From NCBI GenBank assembly GCA_039190745.1, contig JBCCXZ010000008.1, forward strand, positions 20,937 to 84,936: a stretch of DNA of 64,000 nucleotides, given 5' to 3'. The notes beneath the pieces are model-generated. The model was not told where the DNA came from. It saw only the letters and a list, made by a program, of their open reading frames with translations, and did no database searches. Shown in pieces: positions 7,617-17,651 of this stretch. How positions within the stretch are numbered: the stretch's first letter is position 1; the number at the start of each line of letters is the position of its first letter. The translations under genes were made by a program, and so were the position numbers. Source of the stretch: Planctomycetota bacterium. GTDB taxonomy: Bacteria > Planctomycetota > Planctomycetia > Pirellulales > Lacipirellulaceae.

Positions 7617-10604
7617 ATGAGAATCCTGAAACTCACGCTCCGCCCGAGTGGCGACTGGGCCGCCGCCGACAGTGTCGTCGCCTACGGTTCCGCAGCCGAC
7701 AGAGCTCCGCTGCGGGTGGACCTCTCCGACCGCCCGTTCACGGTCGTCCACAGCAACCAGCATCACAAGCTCAACGCCACGTCAGACGCCATACGGCATA
7801 CGCTCTACGGCACGCCGCGCAGCGATGGCTTATTCTTCTCTGCTGAACAGCCGTTGCTCGCGTCGGTGGGAGTCACCGCCGGCAACGCCGAGTATACCCT
7901 GCAACGACCGGGCGATGGCCCGCTGCGCTTCACAGCGGCAGACGGAGCAGGACCGGGCGAAGCCAAGCAGCTGTTCCCCGAACTAGAACGCCTCGCCCCG
8001 TCGGCGGCCGATACCCTTCACGCAGTCGACCTTCACGACGAAGCCGGCCTCAACGCCCTGCTCAACCCCGGGTTCACCCGCGAGTTCCGCCGCGCCGTCC
8101 ACGATCTCCGCGCCCCGACCTCCGTCGATCGCGCAAGCCTGCTCCACCGGCGCGACGCCCTCGCCAAACAGATCGAGGAGCTGCTTGCCGAGAGCCGCGC
8201 AACCAGCACCGATCTTACAGCCGCCATCGAACAGATCGACCATAAGCTCGCCGAGCTCGACCAGCACGCCGCCCGGCTCCGCGACGAGCTGCACGGCCTC
8301 AACACCGCCGCCGGTTGGGAGAAGGCCGAAGCCCTACGCCGCGAGATCGAATCCCGCGCCACGGTGCTCACCGAAGCCGACCGCAAACGCATCGAGTCGG
8401 AGGCCGCTGCGCTCGACCAACAAGTCGTCGACTGCCGCTCCACGGTCCGTCAGCTCGAAACGCGCCAGCAAGAGCTCCGGCGCGTCGTCGCCGAGACACA
8501 GCCAGACGGGCGTGCCGACGGCCCCGGCGGCGTCTTCCAACAACGCGAGGCCATCGCCTCCGCCGAGCGGGTGCTCGACGCGCTTGACGCCGAGGTCGGC
8601 CAAGTCGCCGCCGCCATCGAGTCGGACAAACCCATCGACCGCGCCGCCCACGCCAAGCTCCGCCCACTGGCTGCAATGCTCCGCGAGCAGCTCAACGGAC
8701 TCTGCAGTTTGGTTGTCGAGCAGCAACGCGCCCAGCAACGCCGCGACGCGGTCGCCGAGCAGCGTCAGCTCGAACGGGCGCTCGCTGAACTCGCCGACCG
8801 GCTTGAGCTGTTGCTCTCGCAACGCGAGTCGCTCGTCGCCCCGCTCAACACCCGCTGGACACCCCGCATACTGCCGCCCGAGAAGCGGCGAGGCGCTTAT
8901 GAAGCAACGCGGTCTTCGGAGAAACACTACCCGGAGAACCTCGCCGACGAGCAGCACCGCCTCGCCGCCGAACTCTGCCGCGTTGAGACCGGGGCCGAAG
9001 ACCTCCGCATCCGCAAGCAAGAGCTGCAAGACCAACGCGCAAGGCTGGTCACCACCGCCCGCGTCGACCGGCTCCAAGCGGAACTCGCCGACATCGAGAA
9101 CCGACTCCGCACCGGCGTGCCAGCGCAAGAAGACCAACCACCCGCCACGCTCCGCGCCTCCGACCTGCTCGCACAACTCACCGCCGGCGAGCTCGTCCAG
9201 CTCCGCCCCGCCGCCGACGGCCGCGCCGTCTCCGTCATCGACCGCCGCGGCGACAGGTGGGACTCTTCCCGCATCACCCCTCAGCTCCGCGACCAACTCT
9301 TTCTTGCCATGCAGCTCGCCATGGTGGACGCCTGCGCCGCACGCGGCATCCGCCTGCCCGTGGTGCTCAACGCCCCGTTCACCCGGCTCGACGGCCAAGC
9401 CTCCGCGGCCCTGGCCGCCGTGCTCGGCGACTTCGCCCTCCGCGGCAACCAGGTCGTCGTCCTCACCGACAGCGAACAAGCCCTCGGCCACTGCCTCGCC
9501 AGCGGAGCCGTGCTCTGCCGATTCAACGAGCCGGTGCAGCTACCAACACCCGCTCCCCCGGTCGCCTCCTCAAAACTCCGCGTCGTCCGCGAGCCCCGCG
9601 ACGGCTCCGACTCCTACAGCGCGAAGACCGACTGCGAATCCAGCGACCCCGACGATGTCTTCTACCTCCGCCTTACCAGCCAGATGCACGCGTTCCCCGT
9701 GCTCGGTGACGAGACCGGCGAGGCATTCTCCGCCGCCGGCATCACCACCGTCGCCGACCTGCTCGACGCCGATCCAGAAACCCTCGCCCGCCGCCTCGAC
9801 CGCCCCCGCATCACCTCCACCACCGTACGGCTCTGGCAGACGCACACGCGCCTGCTCTGCACCATCCCCGGCGTCACACTCGCCGACGCCCAGGTGCTCG
9901 CCGCCGCCGGCTTCGGCCCGCTCCGCACGCTGGCCGGCGCTACGGTCGACTCTATCCGCGACAGCGTTGACGACGTCCTCGCCACCGAAGAAGGCAGCCG
10001 CTTCAGCCGGGCCGCCGCCTACCTTACGCCCGACCGCCTCGAAGCCTGGATCGCCGCCGCCCAAGAGACTGTCCGCCGCGGAGCGGCCCGCCCCTCGAAC
10101 AAGCCCAAGCAACGCGCTCGCAAGACCGCCAAGACTGCCGCGGCCAGCAAACCCAAACCGACCGTCCGCAAGTTCTACCTCTCGCTCGACAGCGACGTCG
10201 AAGACGGCCCCTCCATCGGGCCCAAGACCGCCGAGAAGCTCGCCGCGGTCGGCGTCCGCACCGTTGCCGACCTGCTCAACGCCGACCCCGCCTCCGTCGC
10301 CGATGAGCTCGACGTGTCGCACATCCGCGCCGCCCAGCTCGTCGACTGGCAGCACCAGGCCCGCCTCGTCTGCCGCGTCCCCAACCTGCGGGGAACCGGT
10401 GCTCAACTGCTTGTCGCCTGCGGCTTCACCAAGGCCGAACAAATCGCCAGCGCCGAGCCCGAGTCCTTCGTCCGAAAGATCGCCGCCTTCTGCCGCTCCA
10501 AGCCCGGCGAGCGCATCCTCCGCGGCAGCAAAGCCCCCGCCCCCGAGCGGATCGCCGGTTGGATCAAGAACGCGGCCGCAGCACGCTCGCTGGAAGCGGC
10601 CTAG
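7617..10604 (+). CDS. Coiled-coil SbcC/YhaN-like protein with degenerate ATPase motifs and two C-terminal DUF4332-like helix-hairpin-helix domains
   Basis: Long coiled coil; RDQLFLAMQLA and LPVVLNAPFTRLD (decayed signature/Walker B); repeated GITTVADLLDADP / IGPKTAEKLAAVGVRTVADLL. Confidence 0.75.
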   Translation: MRILKLTLRPSGDWAAADSVVAYGSAADRAPLRVDLSDRPFTVVHSNQHHKLNATSDAIRHTLYGTPRSDGLFFSAEQPLLASVGVTAGNAEYTLQRPGDGPLRFTAADGAGPGEAKQLFPELERLAPSAADTLHAVDLHDEAGLNALLNPGFTREFRRAVHDLRAPTSVDRASLLHRRDALAKQIEELLAESRATSTDLTAAIEQIDHKLAELDQHAARLRDELHGLNTAAGWEKAEALRREIESRATVLTEADRKRIESEAAALDQQVVDCRSTVRQLETRQQELRRVVAETQPDGRADGPGGVFQQREAIASAERVLDALDAEVGQVAAAIESDKPIDRAAHAKLRPLAAMLREQLNGLCSLVVEQQRAQQRRDAVAEQRQLERALAELADRLELLLSQRESLVAPLNTRWTPRILPPEKRRGAYEATRSSEKHYPENLADEQHRLAAELCRVETGAEDLRIRKQELQDQRARLVTTARVDRLQAELADIENRLRTGVPAQEDQPPATLRASDLLAQLTAGELVQLRPAADGRAVSVIDRRGDRWDSSRITPQLRDQLFLAMQLAMVDACAARGIRLPVVLNAPFTRLDGQASAALAAVLGDFALRGNQVVVLTDSEQALGHCLASGAVLCRFNEPVQLPTPAPPVASSKLRVVREPRDGSDSYSAKTDCESSDPDDVFYLRLTSQMHAFPVLGDETGEAFSAAGITTVADLLDADPETLARRLDRPRITSTTVRLWQTHTRLLCTIPGVTLADAQVLAAAGFGPLRTLAGATVDSIRDSVDDVLATEEGSRFSRAAAYLTPDRLEAWIAAAQETVRRGAARPSNKPKQRARKTAKTAAASKPKPTVRKFYLSLDSDVEDGPSIGPKTAEKLAAVGVRTVADLLNADPASVADELDVSHIRAAQLVDWQHQARLVCRVPNLRGTGAQLLVACGFTKAEQIASAEPESFVRKIAAFCRSKPGERILRGSKAPAPERIAGWIKNAAAARSLEAA

Positions 10605-10885: not shown

Positions 10886-11629
10886 ATGAATCCGTACAGC
10901 TCGCTTTCGGACGACTTCTACCTCAACCTCAATCTCAGCACCGAGATGGAGCTCCCCAGCGCCCGCGAAACGGTGCTGCACTACTTCGAGCAGATCCAGA
11001 AGAAGTTCCCCCAGATGCGGAACTTCTACTCCCGAGACAAGAACGACTTCGTCCTCGAAGAAGACAAAGACCGCGGCAACTACCGCTGGGCCACCGTCGA
11101 GCCCCGCCGCATCTGCTCCGGGCAAGTGAACCCCGAGTCGCTCGAAGACGCCCTCGTGCAGCACCGCCACGTGCTCGACACGGCGCCCTACGCCCTCTCG
11201 ATCAGCCCGCTCGACTGCGAGGCCCTCGACCTCATGCTGGGCTTCGACTTCACCTACCGCGGCAACCACAACCAGCTCATCGCCGAGGCCCTCGGCATCT
11301 GCCCCGCGATGGAACGGCTCAGCCACATCCCCGGCAGCACCATCATCAACAACGAGCCGAACCTCACGTTCGCCCTCGACGAAGAGTGCCGCCTGCAGTG
11401 CCGCCTGAGCGTCGAGCCCCGCACCAACGCCTACCAGATCCGCACCGGCGAGTACCAGGAAGACCAGATCAGCGTCTACGTCACCGCCCGCCAATACGGC
11501 AGCCTCGGCGCCGACGACACCTTCCTCAAGGCCCTCGACCGCCTCACCGACGTCTGCCGCGAAGTAGTAGACGACTACGTGGTCGACGCCATTCTCCAAC
11601 CGCTGGCGCGAACGATTTCGCTGGAGTAG
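10886..11629 (+). CDS. Conserved hypothetical protein
   Basis: 247-aa ORF with strong GC3 bias and upstream AGAAGGGA RBS-like sequence. Confidence 0.8.
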   Translation: MNPYSSLSDDFYLNLNLSTEMELPSARETVLHYFEQIQKKFPQMRNFYSRDKNDFVLEEDKDRGNYRWATVEPRRICSGQVNPESLEDALVQHRHVLDTAPYALSISPLDCEALDLMLGFDFTYRGNHNQLIAEALGICPAMERLSHIPGSTIINNEPNLTFALDEECRLQCRLSVEPRTNAYQIRTGEYQEDQISVYVTARQYGSLGADDTFLKALDRLTDVCREVVDDYVVDAILQPLARTISLE

Positions 11630-11693
11630 CTCGCACCCCTTCCGGGGTCAGTATTTCTCTCTGCTGCGCGACCCGTACGTCTGTCGTTCGAGA

Positions 11694-11921
11694 GTGAACG
11701 GCGAGATCGCCATCACCGAGTCGCTCACCATCGACGGCCTCGCCAACACACCCAACGGCGTCATCATCGACGCCTCCGGCAGCGACCCCGACGGGGACGC
11801 CCTCAACGGGGCCCGCATCTTCAACGTCACCGACACCGCTGGCAACGGCGCCGCCGCCAACTACCTCTTCCGCTGCCTCACGCTCACCGGCGGCGAATCT
11901 TCACACCCCATAGCCGCCTGA
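11694..11921 (+). pseudogene. Isolated gene fragment homologous to the conserved box segment of the downstream surface protein
   Basis: GEIAITESLTIDG...GVIIDASGSDPD...NGARIFNV...YLFRCLTLTGGE aligns with GQLDITNPIIIDG...GVTIIADDPD...DGSRIFEF...YLLKGLTLTGGD at 13971-14165. Confidence 0.75.
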
Positions 11922-11979
11922 TTCGGCTACAACGATAATCATCGCCGAACATTACTCACCCGGTTCGAAAGCGCTTCCC

Positions 11980-13024
11980 ATGCGAAGACTCTGCTACATC
12001 GTGGCTGCGTTAACATCTGCCCCTCTCAGCCCGGCAACAGGCGCCGCCATCTTCGAGAGCGGTACGCTCGGGCAGACCGGGCAATCGTTCCAAGAGGTAC
12101 CCGGCACTAGCGTCCAGTCTGGCATATTCACCGGCGTCCGCTTCGAGCTGGCTAAGCCGGTGTTTGCAACGGAGATTGGCGGCCACTTCGTTTCCACAAC
12201 TCCGGGAAGCTTCTTTGGAGCAGTTGTGTCGCTAGACGACGAGAACGATTTCCCCGATTCCCTTGATTTATCCACGCCCGATGTCCTAGGAACTGCATTG
12301 CTAACATTTCCTGCTCTCTCCGATGAGGTCTTCGGAAGCGTATCCTTGCGCCTCGATCCGGGTTGGTACGCTCTCGCTTTCGGCAGTGGCCTCTTTGGAG
12401 CTACTGGGTCGGGAGGTGCGACACGAAATAATTATTGGAGAGCAAGACTATATTGGTTTATTAACAGACCCCGGTTGGTTCCAGCTCTCTGATCTAAGTG
12501 ACGTAGTTCTCTTTGTGGACCATCGTTTCGTGATTAACGGCTTTGTGGTACCTGAGCCAGCCACTAGCAGCTTGCTCTCGCTCATACTGTGCTACATTCT
12601 GAAGCGCCGTCCGACTCGAAAGCAACCTTCGCAAGCAGGCCGCAAATTGCGGGTGGAAGCCTTTGAAGACCGTCGTGTCCTTGCGCAGTTCGTCGTTGAT
12701 TCATCGCTCGATGTTGTTGACCCAAACGATGGCTTGGTAACTCTTCGTGAAGCAGTGCAAGCTGCAGATCTCAGCACGAACCAAGACGAGATCATCTTTG
12801 ACCTCGACCCTGTAATCGATGGCACCACGATTCAGCTCACCCAAGGCCAGATCTCCATTGCCAACCCCGTCATCATCGACGGCCTCTCCCAAGGCCCCGA
12901 CGGGGTAACCATCGTCGCCGACGACCCCGACACGCAAGTCGACGGCAACGGCTCTCGGATCTTCAACATCGAGATCTCCCCGAACGGCGGAGACGGCGTC
13001 ATTCCATTCGCTGTCGCAGCGTGA
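11980..13024 (+). pseudogene. Orphan N-terminal cassette: signal peptide + ~190-aa domain + PEP-CTERM + planctomycete export motif + CSLREA-like start; frameshifted near 12430 and truncated
   Basis: ORFs 11980-12492 and 12323-13024 together align end to end with 13089-14090. Frame break at ACACGAAATAATTATTGGA (RNN..IG). Ends about 19 codons after the homology box. Confidence 0.8.
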
Positions 13025-13088
13025 CCCGGGTACACTCAATGAAATCATTGTGCGTTCTCATACCATTCGTCTTCCGCGGAGATCCGAC

Positions 13089-16000
13089 ATGCGACTCCTG
13101 TTCTGCCTGCTCCTGAGCGCAGCGTTCATTAACACTACGGCTCATGCGGCAACTATCTTCGAGAGCGGCACGCTCGGCCAGACCGGCCTGACCGTCCAAG
13201 ACATCTTCGATGGAGTCACCGGCGGCACCAATGTCCAACCATCCATCTTCACCGGCGTACGCTTCGAGCTAACCGAGCCGGTGCGTACCACGGAAGTCGG
13301 CGGGCATTTTGTGGCCTCGTCCCCGGGAACGTTCTTTGGAGCAATCGTCGCACTCGACGACGAAGATGATTTTCCGGACTCGGAAGACCTCTCGACCCCG
13401 GACGTTCTAGGAGTCACCGAACTTGCGTTTCCAGTTGAATCGGAACAGGTATTCGGCGATCTATCGCTACTCCTCCAACCCGGTTGGTACGCGCTCGCCT
13501 TCGGCAGCGGGCTGTTTGGCACTTCCGGTCAAGGAGCGGCTCTCAGAAACAACCCGGACATCGGAAGCCCAACTTACATCGGCCTCCAATCGCGCCCGGG
13601 GCGGTTCAATCTATCCGATCTAAGCGATGCAATCCTCTTTGAAGATCATCATTTCGTGGTCAAGGGCATTGTAGTTCCAGAACCCGGAGGAGCAGGCTTG
13701 TTCGCTTCACTGGCATGCTGGCTGCTCAAACGTCCTAGACCACAACGATCCACGCCTCAACATGGTCGCAGACTACGACTGGAAGCGTGCGAAGAACGGC
13801 GTGCCTTGGCTACACTGACGGTGGATTCTACGCTAGACGTAGTCGACCCCAATGACGGAGTTACGACCCTCCGAGAAGCAGTAGAGGCAGCGGAGGGAAA
13901 CTTCGAACCAGACGAAATCCTCTTCGACCTAGACGAAGTCGTCGACGGGACCACCATCCAACTCACCTAAGGCCAGCTTGACATCACCAACCCCATCATC
14001 ATCGACGGCCTCTCCCAAGGCCCCGACGGGGTCACGATCATCGCCGACGACCCGGACACGCAAGTCGACGGCGACGGCTCTCGCATCTTCGAGTTCGACA
14101 TCTTCACCGGCCCTGCCGACGACGAACAGTATCTGCTCAAGGGCCTGACCCTCACCGGCGGAGACGCGACCAGCGATGGCGGAGCCGTCTTATTCGACAA
14201 AAGCGGCAACGGCGCCGTTGAGTTTCGAATCGAAGACAGCACATTCCTCAGCAACCAAACCGCGAGAGCGGGCGGAGCTGTTTATGTTTCATCTAGCAAC
14301 AGACTTTCGCTCTATGTCGAGCGGACCGTGGTCTCTGGCAATCAAGCCGGGCTAGATTCCAGCGCCGGCCGTGGAGGCGGTATCGGAGTCCGCGAGGCAG
14401 AGTCGGTCAACATCACCGATAGCATCTTCTTCGGCAACGAGACCGTCGACACTCTTGGAGGAAAAGGAGGCGGCCTGTACCTCTACTTCGGGTCCTCTTT
14501 GTCGAACCCACAAGACGCGACCATCACTAGGAGTGTGTTTCGGCAGAACAAATCTCTGGGCGAAGCAAACGAGACGGGCGGGGGCGGCATCTACGCCAAC
14601 CTCGAAGGAGACCGCGCGGCCGGCAGCTCGATACCTACGCTTGAAATTGTAGACTCCACCATCAGCGGCAACGAAGCCCGAGAAGACGGCGGCGGCCTCT
14701 GGGTGTGCACCAAATACGGAGCGGTCTTCGAGATGCGTGGCAGCACCGTCTCAGGAAATCAGACAGGACGCATCGAAGGAACAGGAGGCTACGGAGACCC
14801 GCTGGTGTTTACCGGAGACGGGGGCGGCGTTTGGATTGGGATGCTTGGAGATCGACCAGAAGTCTACCTAGATTCTTCGATCGCGAACGTGACCGTCTCA
14901 GGGAACAGCGCGATAAGTCGTGGCGGCGGCATGTGGGCAGGCATCGTGCCCAGTGGGCCCGAAGGCGATTTTGATCTCGCCTTGGATCACACAACCATCA
15001 CCGACAACCGCTCCCCAAATGGCGGCGGCCTCTACAGCGACCCCGACGCCACCCTCCTCCGCATCGACACCCTCCTCAGCAACACGATCGTCTCCGCCAA
15101 CCAAGTCTCCGACACCAACGCCGCTCCCAACAACATCGCCGGCGCCATCAACCAGACGTCCGACTACAACCTCTGGGGCACGAGTACCGCCGTTCTGCCA
15201 TCGCTCAACAACATCATTAATGACAACCCCGGCCTCACCCCGCTCCAGGACAACAACGGCTTCACGCTCCCAGACGGCAGCACGATCCTCACCCACGAGC
15301 CGCTCGCCGACAGCCCTGCCATTAACAACGGCGACCCTGCAGTCCTGTTCGACCCCAACGACTTCGACCAACGCGGCGCCGGCTTCGAACGGGTCATCGG
15401 GAACCGAGTTGACATCGGAGCTGTAGAGTTCCAGCCCGACGACGGCGGACCCAAAGTCATCGACATCCGCATCGACGGCTCCGGCTGGGGCAGAGACGCC
15501 TACTCGTTCGCCGCGATCGTCCCCGCGGGCGAGCAGCTCCGGCCGATCTTCACGCAGGGCGCAGACACCATCGAGATCCAGTTCGATCAGAACGTCGTCC
15601 TGGCCGGCAGCGGCTCTGAACTGACCCTCAAGACCGACAACGGCGTCGCCCTCCCGGGCGTCACCTACGTTGGGTTTGACCCCATACTCAATGTGGCGAC
15701 ATGGACCGTCGCCGGCGGGTTGCCCGACGGCAAGTACGCCATCCACCTCGACAACACCATCACCAACGGCGCCGGCACGCTGCTCGACGCCGACTGGGTC
15801 AACCCCGACAACAATACCCCCGATTACTACCCAGACGACATTTACGACCCAGAGTACGTCTCGTCCTTCACACCCGGCGACGGCATGCCGGGCGCCAGCG
15901 GTGGCGGGTTCCGCTTCCACTTCGCTCTGTTGGCCGGCGACTACGACGGAGACGGCCTCGTCGAGGGCGAAGCCACCGGAGACGACTTTCTACAAGCGTT

Positions 16001-17342
16001 CGGCCCCGACCCCAACCCTAATGCCGATGGAGACGGAGACGGGAACGGCGGGCTGTTTTCCGATGCGCTGGTCGCGGTCAGCAATAACGGAGCAAAGCTC
16101 TCCCTCAAGGCATTCGGCGACGCCGACTTCAACGACGACGAGGTTGTCGACGATCTGGACCTGGCCTTGTGGGAGATCACCGTCGGCGAAACCATGTTCG
16201 AAGAGGCGGAGCGCGGGGACGGCGACGCGGACGGCGACGGCAAGGTCGATTCACTCGACCTCGCTTACTGGGAAGCCCAGTTCGGCGCCACGCCGCCCAC
16301 TGACGGCTCACCCAGCGCCGATTTCGATGACGATATGGATGTCGATAACGCCGACCTCCTCATCTGGCAAACCGGCTTCGGCAAGGGCACCGGCAACGCA
16401 GACAACGATTCCGACGTCGGCATCGCCGACCTGCTGATCTGGAACAGCTCCTTCGGCCGAGAGTCCGCCTGGTACGTCTCCACCGCAAGCGTCATCGCGA
16501 CCGTCACCGCCGGCGACTTCGCACCCTGGTTAGATGACGTCGTCATCAGCGGCTCGATCTCGATCCACAACCCCTACTCATTCGACGCGGTCGTTGACGG
16601 CTCGGGCGACCAGCTCATCACCGTCCCCGTCGGCGGGGCCGACACCATCGCCATTACCTTTAGTGAACCGGTAAACGTCAGCGCCGGCAGCCTTTCGGTC
16701 GTCGGGCTCACCCAGTCGTTCGTCCCGTTGGTCGCCCAGTTCGACTACAACCCCGGCACACACACCGCCACGTGGCGGCTTGAGAACTGGAACATCCACG
16801 GAGACCAGTACCTGCTGAGCCTGACCGACGCCGTCACCGACGCCGACGGAAACCGGCTCGATGGAGAATGGACCAACCCGCAATCGGTCAACACAACGGC
16901 CGGATCGGCCAGCAACTTCCCCTCCGGAGACGGTGACCCCGGGGGCCGCTTTGACTTCCTGATGACCCTGCTGCCGGGCGACGCCGACCTCGACAACGAC
17001 GTCGATATGGACGACTGGGACATCTTTGACGCCAACATGGGAATCACCAACGGCACATTCACCACGGCCGACTTTAGCGGCGACGGCATCGTCTCACTCT
17101 TCGGCGACGGCTTCGTTATTGTCGCCTACATGGACTGGAACCTGCAGAACGCAACGCTCTCCGCAGACCTCGATGGCGACGGGGACGTCGACGGAGACGA
17201 CCTCGAAACCGTCCTCGACAACCTCGGCATGACCAACCCCACGGCCGCCGATGGCGACCTCGACGGCGACGGGGACATCGATATCGAGGACCTCGACCAC
17301 GCCTTCAGGCTGTTCGGCATCGAACTCGACCTCGTCGCGTAG
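13089..17342 (+). pseudogene. Giant surface protein (~1417 codons): signal peptide, N-terminal domain, internal PEP-CTERM, RRLRLEACEERRALA motif, CSLREA-like, beta-helix GGG repeats, choice-of-anchor-Q-like, Ig-like and dockerin/EF-hand-like repeats; one in-frame TAA at 13968-13970
   Basis: Frame continues without shift from 13971 into ORF 14328-17342 (357 nt = 119 codons). The paralogous cassette has CAA at the same codon. Motifs VTTLREAV, SPAINNG...DQRG...VDIGAVE and many DxDxDGxVD. Confidence 0.8.
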
Positions 17343-17385
17343 CCGCCGGCGAGGCCTCGGGTTCTCCTCATTTCCTTGCTGACCA

Positions 17386-17639
17386 TTTTCTTGCTGAAAA
17401 TGGCCGCGCGTTCTGATAAACAGAAGGCGTGCAGTCAACCGCTCCGCAACGCGACCGCGTGCGAACCCGTTCCGTCACCGAAAACTCGACACGAATGAAC
17501 GCAAACGCAAAGAATTAAGTCCGCCCGCAACTAGCCGCGACGCTACGCGTCGCTGGCGAACCCGCATCGGAGCCTGACAAAAGAAAAGACTTTTGGCGTA
17601 TCGCCGCGTGTACGCGATTTCGTGCCTAAAGACAAAACC
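17386..17639 (+). repeat. Dispersed ~255-bp non-coding element, copy A
   Basis: Colinear with 38013-38272 and with the reverse complement of 49280-49538. Confidence 0.8.
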
Positions 17640-17651
17640 AGGAGGAGGAGA

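Follow-up and report, generated by a model that had tools for sequence, protein, structure and literature searches.

How does the gene of a giant beta-helix surface protein come to be preceded by a row of truncated copies of its own 5' end? The question is raised by positions 11694 to 17342 of the window, the whole 64,000-nucleotide stretch analysed here (positions 20937-84936 of contig C8 of the planctomycete genome G000, a 3.9 Mb assembly in 125 contigs, 95% complete). The window probably holds a broken member of an array that recurs among planctomycetes, in which units made of a spacer, a PEP-CTERM gene and the 5' head of the giant gene are likely to have been stacked by homologous recombination at a short conserved stretch (the box), and whose displaced heads, ending in ssrA-like hydrophobic-Ala-Ala tails, would go to ClpXP. 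The direct observations behind this answer are the layout of the locus, its reappearance in relatives, near-identical boxes lying between modules that have diverged deeply, discordant trees, non-homologous payloads, and the Ala-Ala ends themselves.

Layout of the window array

The array is read from the forward strand and comprises the following features (GC3 stands for the GC content at third codon positions):

11694..11921, + strand: box1, the oldest remnant; lacks an N-module and encodes the box plus the initial beta-helix residues of a divergent head allele; translation ends HPIAA-stop; GC3 0.97
11922..11979, + strand: spacer 1, putative promoter and ribosome-binding region, placed between the stub stop and the next ATG
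11980..12646, + strand: PEP-CTERM gene 2; signal peptide, jelly-roll domain, VPEP at 12548, transmembrane helix, basic tail (TIGR02595, 15.6 bits, cut-off 16)
12647..13024, + strand: head stub 2; Planc_extracel-like motif, CSLREA-like segment, box2 and a 19-codon tail, end FAVAA-stop (PF07595, E 0.0076, below cut-off)
12861..12964, + strand: box2, homogenized tract, 97/104 identical to box3
13025..13088, + strand: spacer 2, putative promoter and ribosome-binding region; GGAG precedes the ATG
13089..13772, + strand: PEP-CTERM gene 3; mature domain starting at 13149 and VPEP at 13674, reads into head 3 without a stop
13773..13970, + strand: head 3; PLE motif and CSLREA-like segment, premature TAA at 13968-13970 (TIGR04214, E 0.015, below cut-off)
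13987..14090, + strand: box3
13971..17342, + strand: C-part of the giant gene, 1123 amino acids; beta-helix/PMP repeats, choice-of-anchor Q (15225-15434), dockerin-like repeats, Ig-like domain, end LDLVA-stop (NF041518, E 7e-14; PF02415, PF13205, PF13229, PF00404)

The initial annotation, made from the letters alone, had described this region as a candidate N-terminal cassette-exchange system, and its outline agrees with the present one: box2 and box3 differ at 7 of 104 nucleotides (longest exact run 37 nt), cassette 2 stops 19 codons past its box, and box1 lacks an N-module. Unit 3, in contrast, cannot be continuous with a C-terminus of about 1100 amino acids as had been proposed, since the TAA at 13968-13970 (CAA in unit 2) separates the C-part from its start. 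PEP-CTERM gene 2 is frameshifted by a 5-nt deletion near 12435, its tail continuing in frame into head 2, and a TTG at 13698, 7 nt behind GGAGG, is predicted as a possible internal start that would make head 3 a separate gene. With a stop in unit 3 and a frameshift in unit 2, the window array is broken and decaying.

The PEP-CTERM gene and the head

What had been called the N-module is a PEP-CTERM gene, predicted to encode a lectin-like jelly-roll protein, together with the 5' head of a beta-helix/choice-of-anchor-Q gene. Each module encodes, in order, a signal peptide (judged by eye), a 175-amino-acid domain (the N-domain), VPEP, a hydrophobic helix and a basic tail; next come a Planc_extracel-like motif (listed among signal peptides in PMC10952558), a CSLREA-like segment and the box. 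The first part matches the PEP-CTERM hallmarks outlined by Haft et al. 2006 (PMC1569441), namely a signal peptide, Pro-Glu-Pro, a transmembrane helix and a basic cluster. The PE pair is invariant in 18/18 aligned rows, and is followed by a hydrophobic and then a mostly basic stretch. The TIGR02595 model falls just short of its cut-off in unit 2 and gives no match at E 0.1 in unit 3, the motif being internal in the window due to the fusion of the PEP-CTERM gene to the head; an exosortase-family gene is present in G000 (TIGR04178, above cut-off).

The 175-amino-acid domain is modeled as a jelly-roll (predicted local distance difference test, pLDDT, 91.9), whose best fold matches are a PBCV-1 capsid chain (Z 13.8, root-mean-square deviation 2.7, 140 residues aligned) and the lectin-like domain of Cwp84 (Z 13.2, deviation 3.0, 148 aligned), followed by PHR domains and carbohydrate-binding modules. 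We infer from this model that the domain may bind sugars. Foldseek gave weak matches for the same domain (best E 7e-4), and the Atlas returned unnamed clusters at 0.92-0.93; a low-confidence fold model of a stub (pLDDT 55) was set aside and not used. Separately, at L046 the jelly-roll occurs as repeated internal domains within a long protein of another family.

On the giant-gene side, choice-of-anchor Q and beta-helix are supported in the C-part by NF041518 (E 7e-14) and PF02415 (E 5e-9), while PF07595 and TIGR04214 match at the expected head positions below their cut-offs (16.4/25.5 and 15.1/25, respectively). Pfam and NCBIfam scans returned beta-helix, choice-of-anchor Q, Big_5 and dockerin families, and no Rhs, haemagglutinin or toxin family. 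In relatives, the PEP-CTERM gene and the head gene are normally separate: a PEP-CTERM or N-domain gene lies at most 220 nt upstream of 52 of the 72 distinct heads (a proportion biased by loci mostly fetched through the N-domain), and in-frame fusion of the two was encountered only in the two units of G000 and at a single locus of G001, a genome of the same genus. The stub heads of relatives have in-frame upstream starts (e.g., MRSQ.., MSSY..; by eye, not a full count).

Recurrence in related genomes

Is the window array an isolated accident? An N-domain profile matches 59/120 genomes of the family at E 1e-20, and, in the part of the N-domain and head matches that was fetched (not a census), a stub followed by a next unit occurs in at least seven other genomes of the family: G069 (L183), G083 (L185), G063 (L074/L188), G030 (L035), G027 (L034), G125 (L075, L209) and G116 (L204), as well as on metagenome contigs L120/L121 and L137. 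The single-contig genome G069 mirrors the window, with three units, i.e. two stubs and one full gene, and an outer remnant ending FLAA-stop. Cassette number and content vary among relatives, as the cassette-exchange idea had led one to expect. Outside the family, a head profile matches 7/267 order-level genomes at E 1e-25; two contigs from one of the seven, G245, carried heads that run off the contig ends.

Two other arrangements were encountered. A second array type, with tandem PEP-CTERM genes and no head stubs between them, occurs at L043, L090, L084, L094, L205, L211 and L212, and at L187 and L189 N-domain PEP-CTERM genes lie on the strand opposite to adjoining head genes with very short head remnants, possibly following inversions.

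Probable exchange at conserved tracts

The boxes of units 2 and 3 stand out from their surroundings. The modules upstream of them share 68% nucleotide identity, and in 50-nt windows the modules give 44-78%, the box 86-90% and the sequence past it about 40%. Fourfold degenerate sites are identical at 22/52 positions in the N-domain, 2/19 in the head (PLE and CSLREA) and 13/17 in the box; GC content is 54% and 57% in the modules vs 66% in the boxes, and GC3 rises from 0.53-0.59 in module 2 to 0.89 in box2, the flanking host gene having 0.91. The modules are thus homologous, diverged at synonymous sites and lower in GC, as first described, and the proposed sliding-window comparison does show its maximum at the box, both in this array and in most of the others. 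Box1, with just 68% identity to box2 along 129 nt, is a divergent allele. The C-terminal part had been termed constant and is not uniformly so: its beta-helix part (14130-15000) has a low GC3 (0.54-0.72), between high-GC3 box and choice-of-anchor Q segments, and may be a second exchangeable segment.

By blastn, no copy of the box was found outside the array in G000 (95% complete), nor any of the further box-bounded cassettes that had been anticipated in this genome; the box as a genome-wide repeat was discarded on these grounds. Six other contigs of G000 carry CSLREA/box paralogues, all in open reading frames of at least 521 amino acids.

Across the family, box identity within arrays reaches 90% in G000, 97/84/85% in G069, 95% in G083, 94% in G063 and 78% in G027 (with a 93% post-box tract), so that 5/7 compared arrays have box or post-box tracts 90-97% identical. 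Between genomes, the box averages only 56% identity (maximum 80%, 263 pairs), while N-domains share 57-71% within arrays vs a between-genome mean of 60% (220 pairs). The box is therefore less conserved than the N-domain across the family, yet far more alike within arrays, a pattern that purifying selection alone would not be expected to give. That the box is a homogenized tract holds; that it is the only one does not, as promoter/signal regions (G083, G063) and an intergenic/head-start region (G063) are homogenized as well.

Trees of 22-24 chosen units (midpoint root, short alignments, N-domain bootstrap not fully settled) point in the same direction. The box tree forms per-genome clades, with starred support in 6/8 groups, while the N-domain tree groups units by genome with starred support in 1/6 cases (G069, 100/98), weakly in G000 (71/95), and not in G083, G063, G030 and G001; the box and N-module trees thus disagree. 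The first unit of G083 pairs in the N-domain tree with that of G030, from another genus (99/98, starred). Payloads also differ in kind, including the jelly-roll N-domain, an FGE-sulfatase-like domain (PF03781, 2/2 tested) and an unnamed PEP-CTERM family, with non-homologous payloads within one array. Tract identity, the discordance between box and N-domain trees and these varied payloads together argue that, in the family, modules have probably been exchanged at conserved tracts, though no conspecific pair with a swapped module was seen among the loci compared. The PEP-CTERM domains were under selection, since within arrays their amino-acid identity is still 57-75% although fourfold sites approach saturation.

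Ala-Ala ends of the head stubs

Both window stubs end in a hydrophobic residue, Ala-Ala and a stop (HPIAA, FAVAA). In order to evaluate such ends, all distinct head open reading frames in 173 scanned loci were classed by what follows their stop and not by their own end (14 were open at contig ends; a few further loci added no closed stub). Hydrophobic-Ala-Ala-stop ends were found in 8/15 stubs, in 0/17 frameshifted or broken genes with a continuing beta-helix, in 0/19 full genes and in 3/13 cases that could not be assigned, an enrichment in stubs with a Fisher p of 1e-5. Counted by genome or sample the frequency is 6/11, covering genera g1, g6, g9 and g22 and one metagenome lineage, against a background in which such ends occur in 3.3% of the 1932 likely genes of G000 and at 0.5% of 6810 in-frame positions. 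In a second set of 20 loci, picked by short open reading frame length, 12 heads belonged to broken full genes (none with Ala-Ala), and five other closed short frames included three ending LAA-stop (L204, L205, L209) and one frameshifted case.

The tails extend 5-184 amino acids past the head, and their Ala and stop codons vary between lineages (GCC GCC TGA, GCA GCG TGA, GCA GCT TGA, GCT GCT TAG, GCG GCG TAA). A DNA recombination site at the stub ends, suggested by GCCGCCTGA in two genomes, was rejected, other lineages using other Ala and stop codons; no shared DNA motif was seen there by eye, and blastn found no match that would make the tails copies of tmRNA (transfer-messenger RNA) genes.

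Most Ala-Ala stubs have an aromatic residue at position -5 (YSLAA, YTLAA, FALAA, FAVAA, FRLAA, FGLAA, YMVAA). For Escherichia coli ClpXP, the terminal Ala-Ala is the part stated to matter most in PMC7652416, and the best degron pentapeptides fit [LFYW]-[LAR]-L-A-A, with 39% of Ala-Ala tags weak, according to 10.1101/2024.01.29.576913. The tmRNA tags predicted by ARAGORN in G069, G083 and G001 (AEGNYALAA and ANGNYALAA) all end NYALAA, and clpX was found in 4/5 genomes, G000 included.

A possible mode of growth

Incoming DNA, from another locus or a relative, would carry a box followed by a tail with Ala-Ala and a stop, a promoter, a PEP-CTERM gene B, a head B and a second box. An unequal double crossover, with one exchange at the resident box and the other in the box or the C-part, would add a unit beside the giant gene, and a circle integrating at the box by single crossover would give the same product. 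After insertion, head B would drive the giant gene and head A would be fused in frame to the incoming Ala-Ala tail, while PEP-CTERM gene A would retain its own promoter and stay usable, so that the cell would collect surface lectin-like proteins. Erosion is strongest in the outer units of both G000 and G069, which lends weak support to this order of insertion.

Why should a displaced head need a tag? In this scheme, 5' orphans would keep their promoter and start codon while 3' orphans lose their start signals, and a tag would be needed because the 5' stubs keep initiation signals that the orphans of contact-dependent inhibition (CDI) systems generally lack; the tail would silence them. That truncated beta-helix heads are harmful is an assumption. 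We rate at about even chances the more specific proposal of a self-silencing N-terminal displacement, in which each cassette starts with an in-frame chromosomal mimic of the ssrA tag, so that a single crossover would both supply the giant adhesin with a new promoter, PEP-CTERM gene and head and mark the old head for ClpXP, allowing surface lectins and spare heads to be stockpiled without proteotoxic cost.

Alternative explanations

Several observations weigh against growth by stacking and tagging. Seven of the 15 stubs lack an Ala-Ala end, including near misses (FALAG, VALAV, and HALAA in the original frame of a stub that is now frameshifted) and clear misses (AALCT, SALPT, RAKLS, GGIFN). The LAA cases of the second set come from one genus, and the tails of L205 and L209 are homologous, so that p-values overstate independence. 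The window tails HPIAA and FAVAA fit the E. coli consensus only partly, weak tags being common in that screen, and tmRNA was not found in G000 (nor in G125). The arrays of G030 (box 55%) and G125 (69%), two of the seven compared, have no high identity peak, and at L204 the giant gene is missing after the last PEP-CTERM gene. In G000 itself, units 2 and 3 have the same fusion and come out as weak sisters in the N-domain tree (71/95) as well as in the head tree (90/84); for this genome taken alone, an old local duplication with later box conversion would fit.

Could the arrays then be ordinary tandem duplications of a PEP-CTERM/giant-gene pair, truncated later and passively converted at the box, with Ala-Ala ends that are incidental or one inherited accident? 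The sister units of G000, both now broken, agree with this, as do the single N-domain clade formed by the three units of G069 and the lack of any donor locus found in G000. Against it stand the non-homologous payloads within one array, the starred cross-genus N-domain pair, and Ala-Ala ends that lie at such varied distances past the head, in different codons, in four genera and a metagenome lineage; we regard it as unlikely.

Stubs may alternatively stem from internal deletions joining a head to the giant gene's own C-terminus, the Ala-Ala being a drifted form of the family C-terminal motif (FG-x-x-L-x-x-VA), and the products being perhaps small secreted or regulatory proteins and not waste. 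Collapsed giant genes of this kind do exist, the head being fused directly to the extreme C-terminal motif of the family at L035 2290-2676 (second unit) and L072 10783-11390; 6/19 full genes end VA and some tails contain F-x-[LV]-AA. Yet none of the 19 full genes ends in Ala-Ala, most tails directly follow a GG(G/A)(I/L)(Y/F/H) beta-helix motif or LTGGD without the DLD..FG.L motif, and the DNA past the stub stops leads into the next PEP-CTERM gene and differs from that past full genes, which makes this origin rather improbable.

The reading of the initial annotation, put as an active switch, would have circles inserting at the box and entire N-modules being exchanged on an otherwise unchanged giant protein, for antigenic-type variation. 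Identity peaks, variable cassette number and tree discordance do speak for exchange at the box, and a crossover between box2 and box3 would join the stop-free head 2 in frame to the C-part. However, the payload is mainly a separate PEP-CTERM gene, sometimes of an unrelated family, the fusion being confined to two units of G000 and one locus of G001, so that only a head of about 90-110 amino acids would be swapped; no recombinase was found beside the window array. Assembled contigs bear on the same point. Among runs X1-X3, available as contigs only, the marine metagenome X1 is the sole one containing the array region (possibly it is the source run, and so not independent), and its depth over unit 3 (6.7) is similar to that over the left flank (7.4); a box2-to-box3 deletion product would create no new joint, and no joint was recorded in these contigs. 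Such a switch is very unlikely.

In X1, the 37-nt exact core shared by box2 and box3 forms its own contig at a doubled depth of 14.9, and contigs break at this repeat, while the TAA at 13968-13970 and the 5-nt deletion near 12435 both lie inside contigs without a single difference. An assembly chimera of related strains, which the 125 contigs of G000 and the X1 contigs ending at the repeat might suggest, has a negligible probability given a depth that is even and doubles at the repeat, X1 contigs that cover both unique junctions without any difference, and the same layout in L183, from a one-contig genome.

Insertion site and neighboring features

Two features border the array:

10886..11629, + strand: conserved hypothetical gene, 247 amino acids; left flank of the variable insertion site, outside the array; identity with G001 ends at 11630
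17383..17431, + strand: short non-coding promoter-like element, also found 3' of both homologous giant genes of G001 (L031 ~12960, ~17900)

The comparison of orthologous loci, from which variable arrays had been expected, found an array at 0/20 fetched sites in relatives, G001 holding 3.5 kb of unrelated DNA there, and across 18 sites with both flanks seen the gap between the flanking genes ranges from 24 bp to 5.5 kb; because of these two results, the window insertion site is considered a hotspot. The 247-amino-acid protein belongs to no Pfam family, has matches in 110/120 genomes of the family (mostly 60-80% identity), and its gene is usually convergent with that of a single-domain response regulator. 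The two homologous giant genes of G001 face each other about 5 kb apart. A non-coding repeat of about 170 bp with an internal palindrome lies at 17467-17640; it resembles miniature inverted-repeat transposable elements or repetitive extragenic palindromes, and related copies occur on more than 20 other G000 contigs and elsewhere on C8. Further upstream (7617-10604), a 995-amino-acid coiled-coil protein with DUF4332/helix-hairpin-helix C-terminal domains ends LEAA.

Comparison with known systems

Taken together, these loci form a real, recurring system, a 5'-side variant of displacement arrays, the expression "C-terminal displacement" being reportedly that of the title of Jackson et al. 2009. 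A 5' array with Ala-Ala-tagged stubs was not found in the literature searched, which covered few subscription journals.

The closest parallels are the orphan cdiA-CT/cdiI and Rhs-CT modules (Poole et al. 2011, PMC3150448, seen in part), where a long gene likewise adjoins a row of fragments bounded by a conserved stretch at which exchange has been proposed, and fragments travel with a small intact partner gene. The fragments described here are N-terminal heads on the 5' side, whereas those of Rhs/CDI are C-terminal tips on the 3' side; the partner is a PEP-CTERM surface protein, with no toxin or immunity function seen; and the stubs keep their starts and often end in an ssrA-like tail, whereas CDI orphans are generally described there as lacking translation initiation signals. 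The retained PEP-CTERM genes are akin to the orphan immunity genes kept at Rhs, CDI and type VI secretion system (T6SS) loci. In the T6SS effector-immunity arrays of Vibrio cholerae, according to parts of Kirchberger et al. 2017 (PMC5361080), sequential addition also retains old partner genes, members do not cluster by genome and payloads are heterogeneous, but the mechanism proposed is homology-facilitated illegitimate recombination and most old effectors have been deleted, whereas here homology blocks lie on either side and the old heads remain as tagged stubs. The tandem esaG arrays of Staphylococcus aureus and tipC arrays of streptococci (Garrett et al. 2022, PMC9484751) gain and lose units through short high-identity blocks between paralogues, comparable to the promoter, intergenic and box tracts described above, but consist of whole immunity genes, the abstract mentioning neither a truncated partner gene nor a degron. 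With regard to integrons and site-specific shufflons, which have an adjacent recombinase and a conserved att site, the window array, the one array scanned for recombinases, is flanked by the hypothetical gene and a response regulator, and by eye no shared DNA motif was seen at the stub ends.

The window genes share the signal peptide, PEP motif, transmembrane helix and basic cluster of the PEP-CTERM/exosortase system, along with an exosortase-family gene in the genome, but are members of recombining arrays linked to a giant Planc_extracel gene, and in genus g1 they continue into it in frame. Like the family tag NYALAA, the stub C-termini are often free hydrophobic-Ala-Ala ends; unlike it, they are chromosomally encoded where a gene fragment ends, and not added by tmRNA during ribosome rescue.

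If the proposed displacement is correct, it would represent a natural use of ssrA mimicry that makes gene shuffling safe, would help to explain how the PEP-CTERM surface repertoires of planctomycetes diversify, and would provide a search signature, namely a short open reading frame ending LAA-stop behind a homology box. The orphan arrays compared here grow at their 3' side, and their leftovers are silent for want of a start; a 5' array leaves fragments with start signals and an export-type signal, and the present loci suggest a solution to this problem, a degradation tag written into the edge of the cassette.

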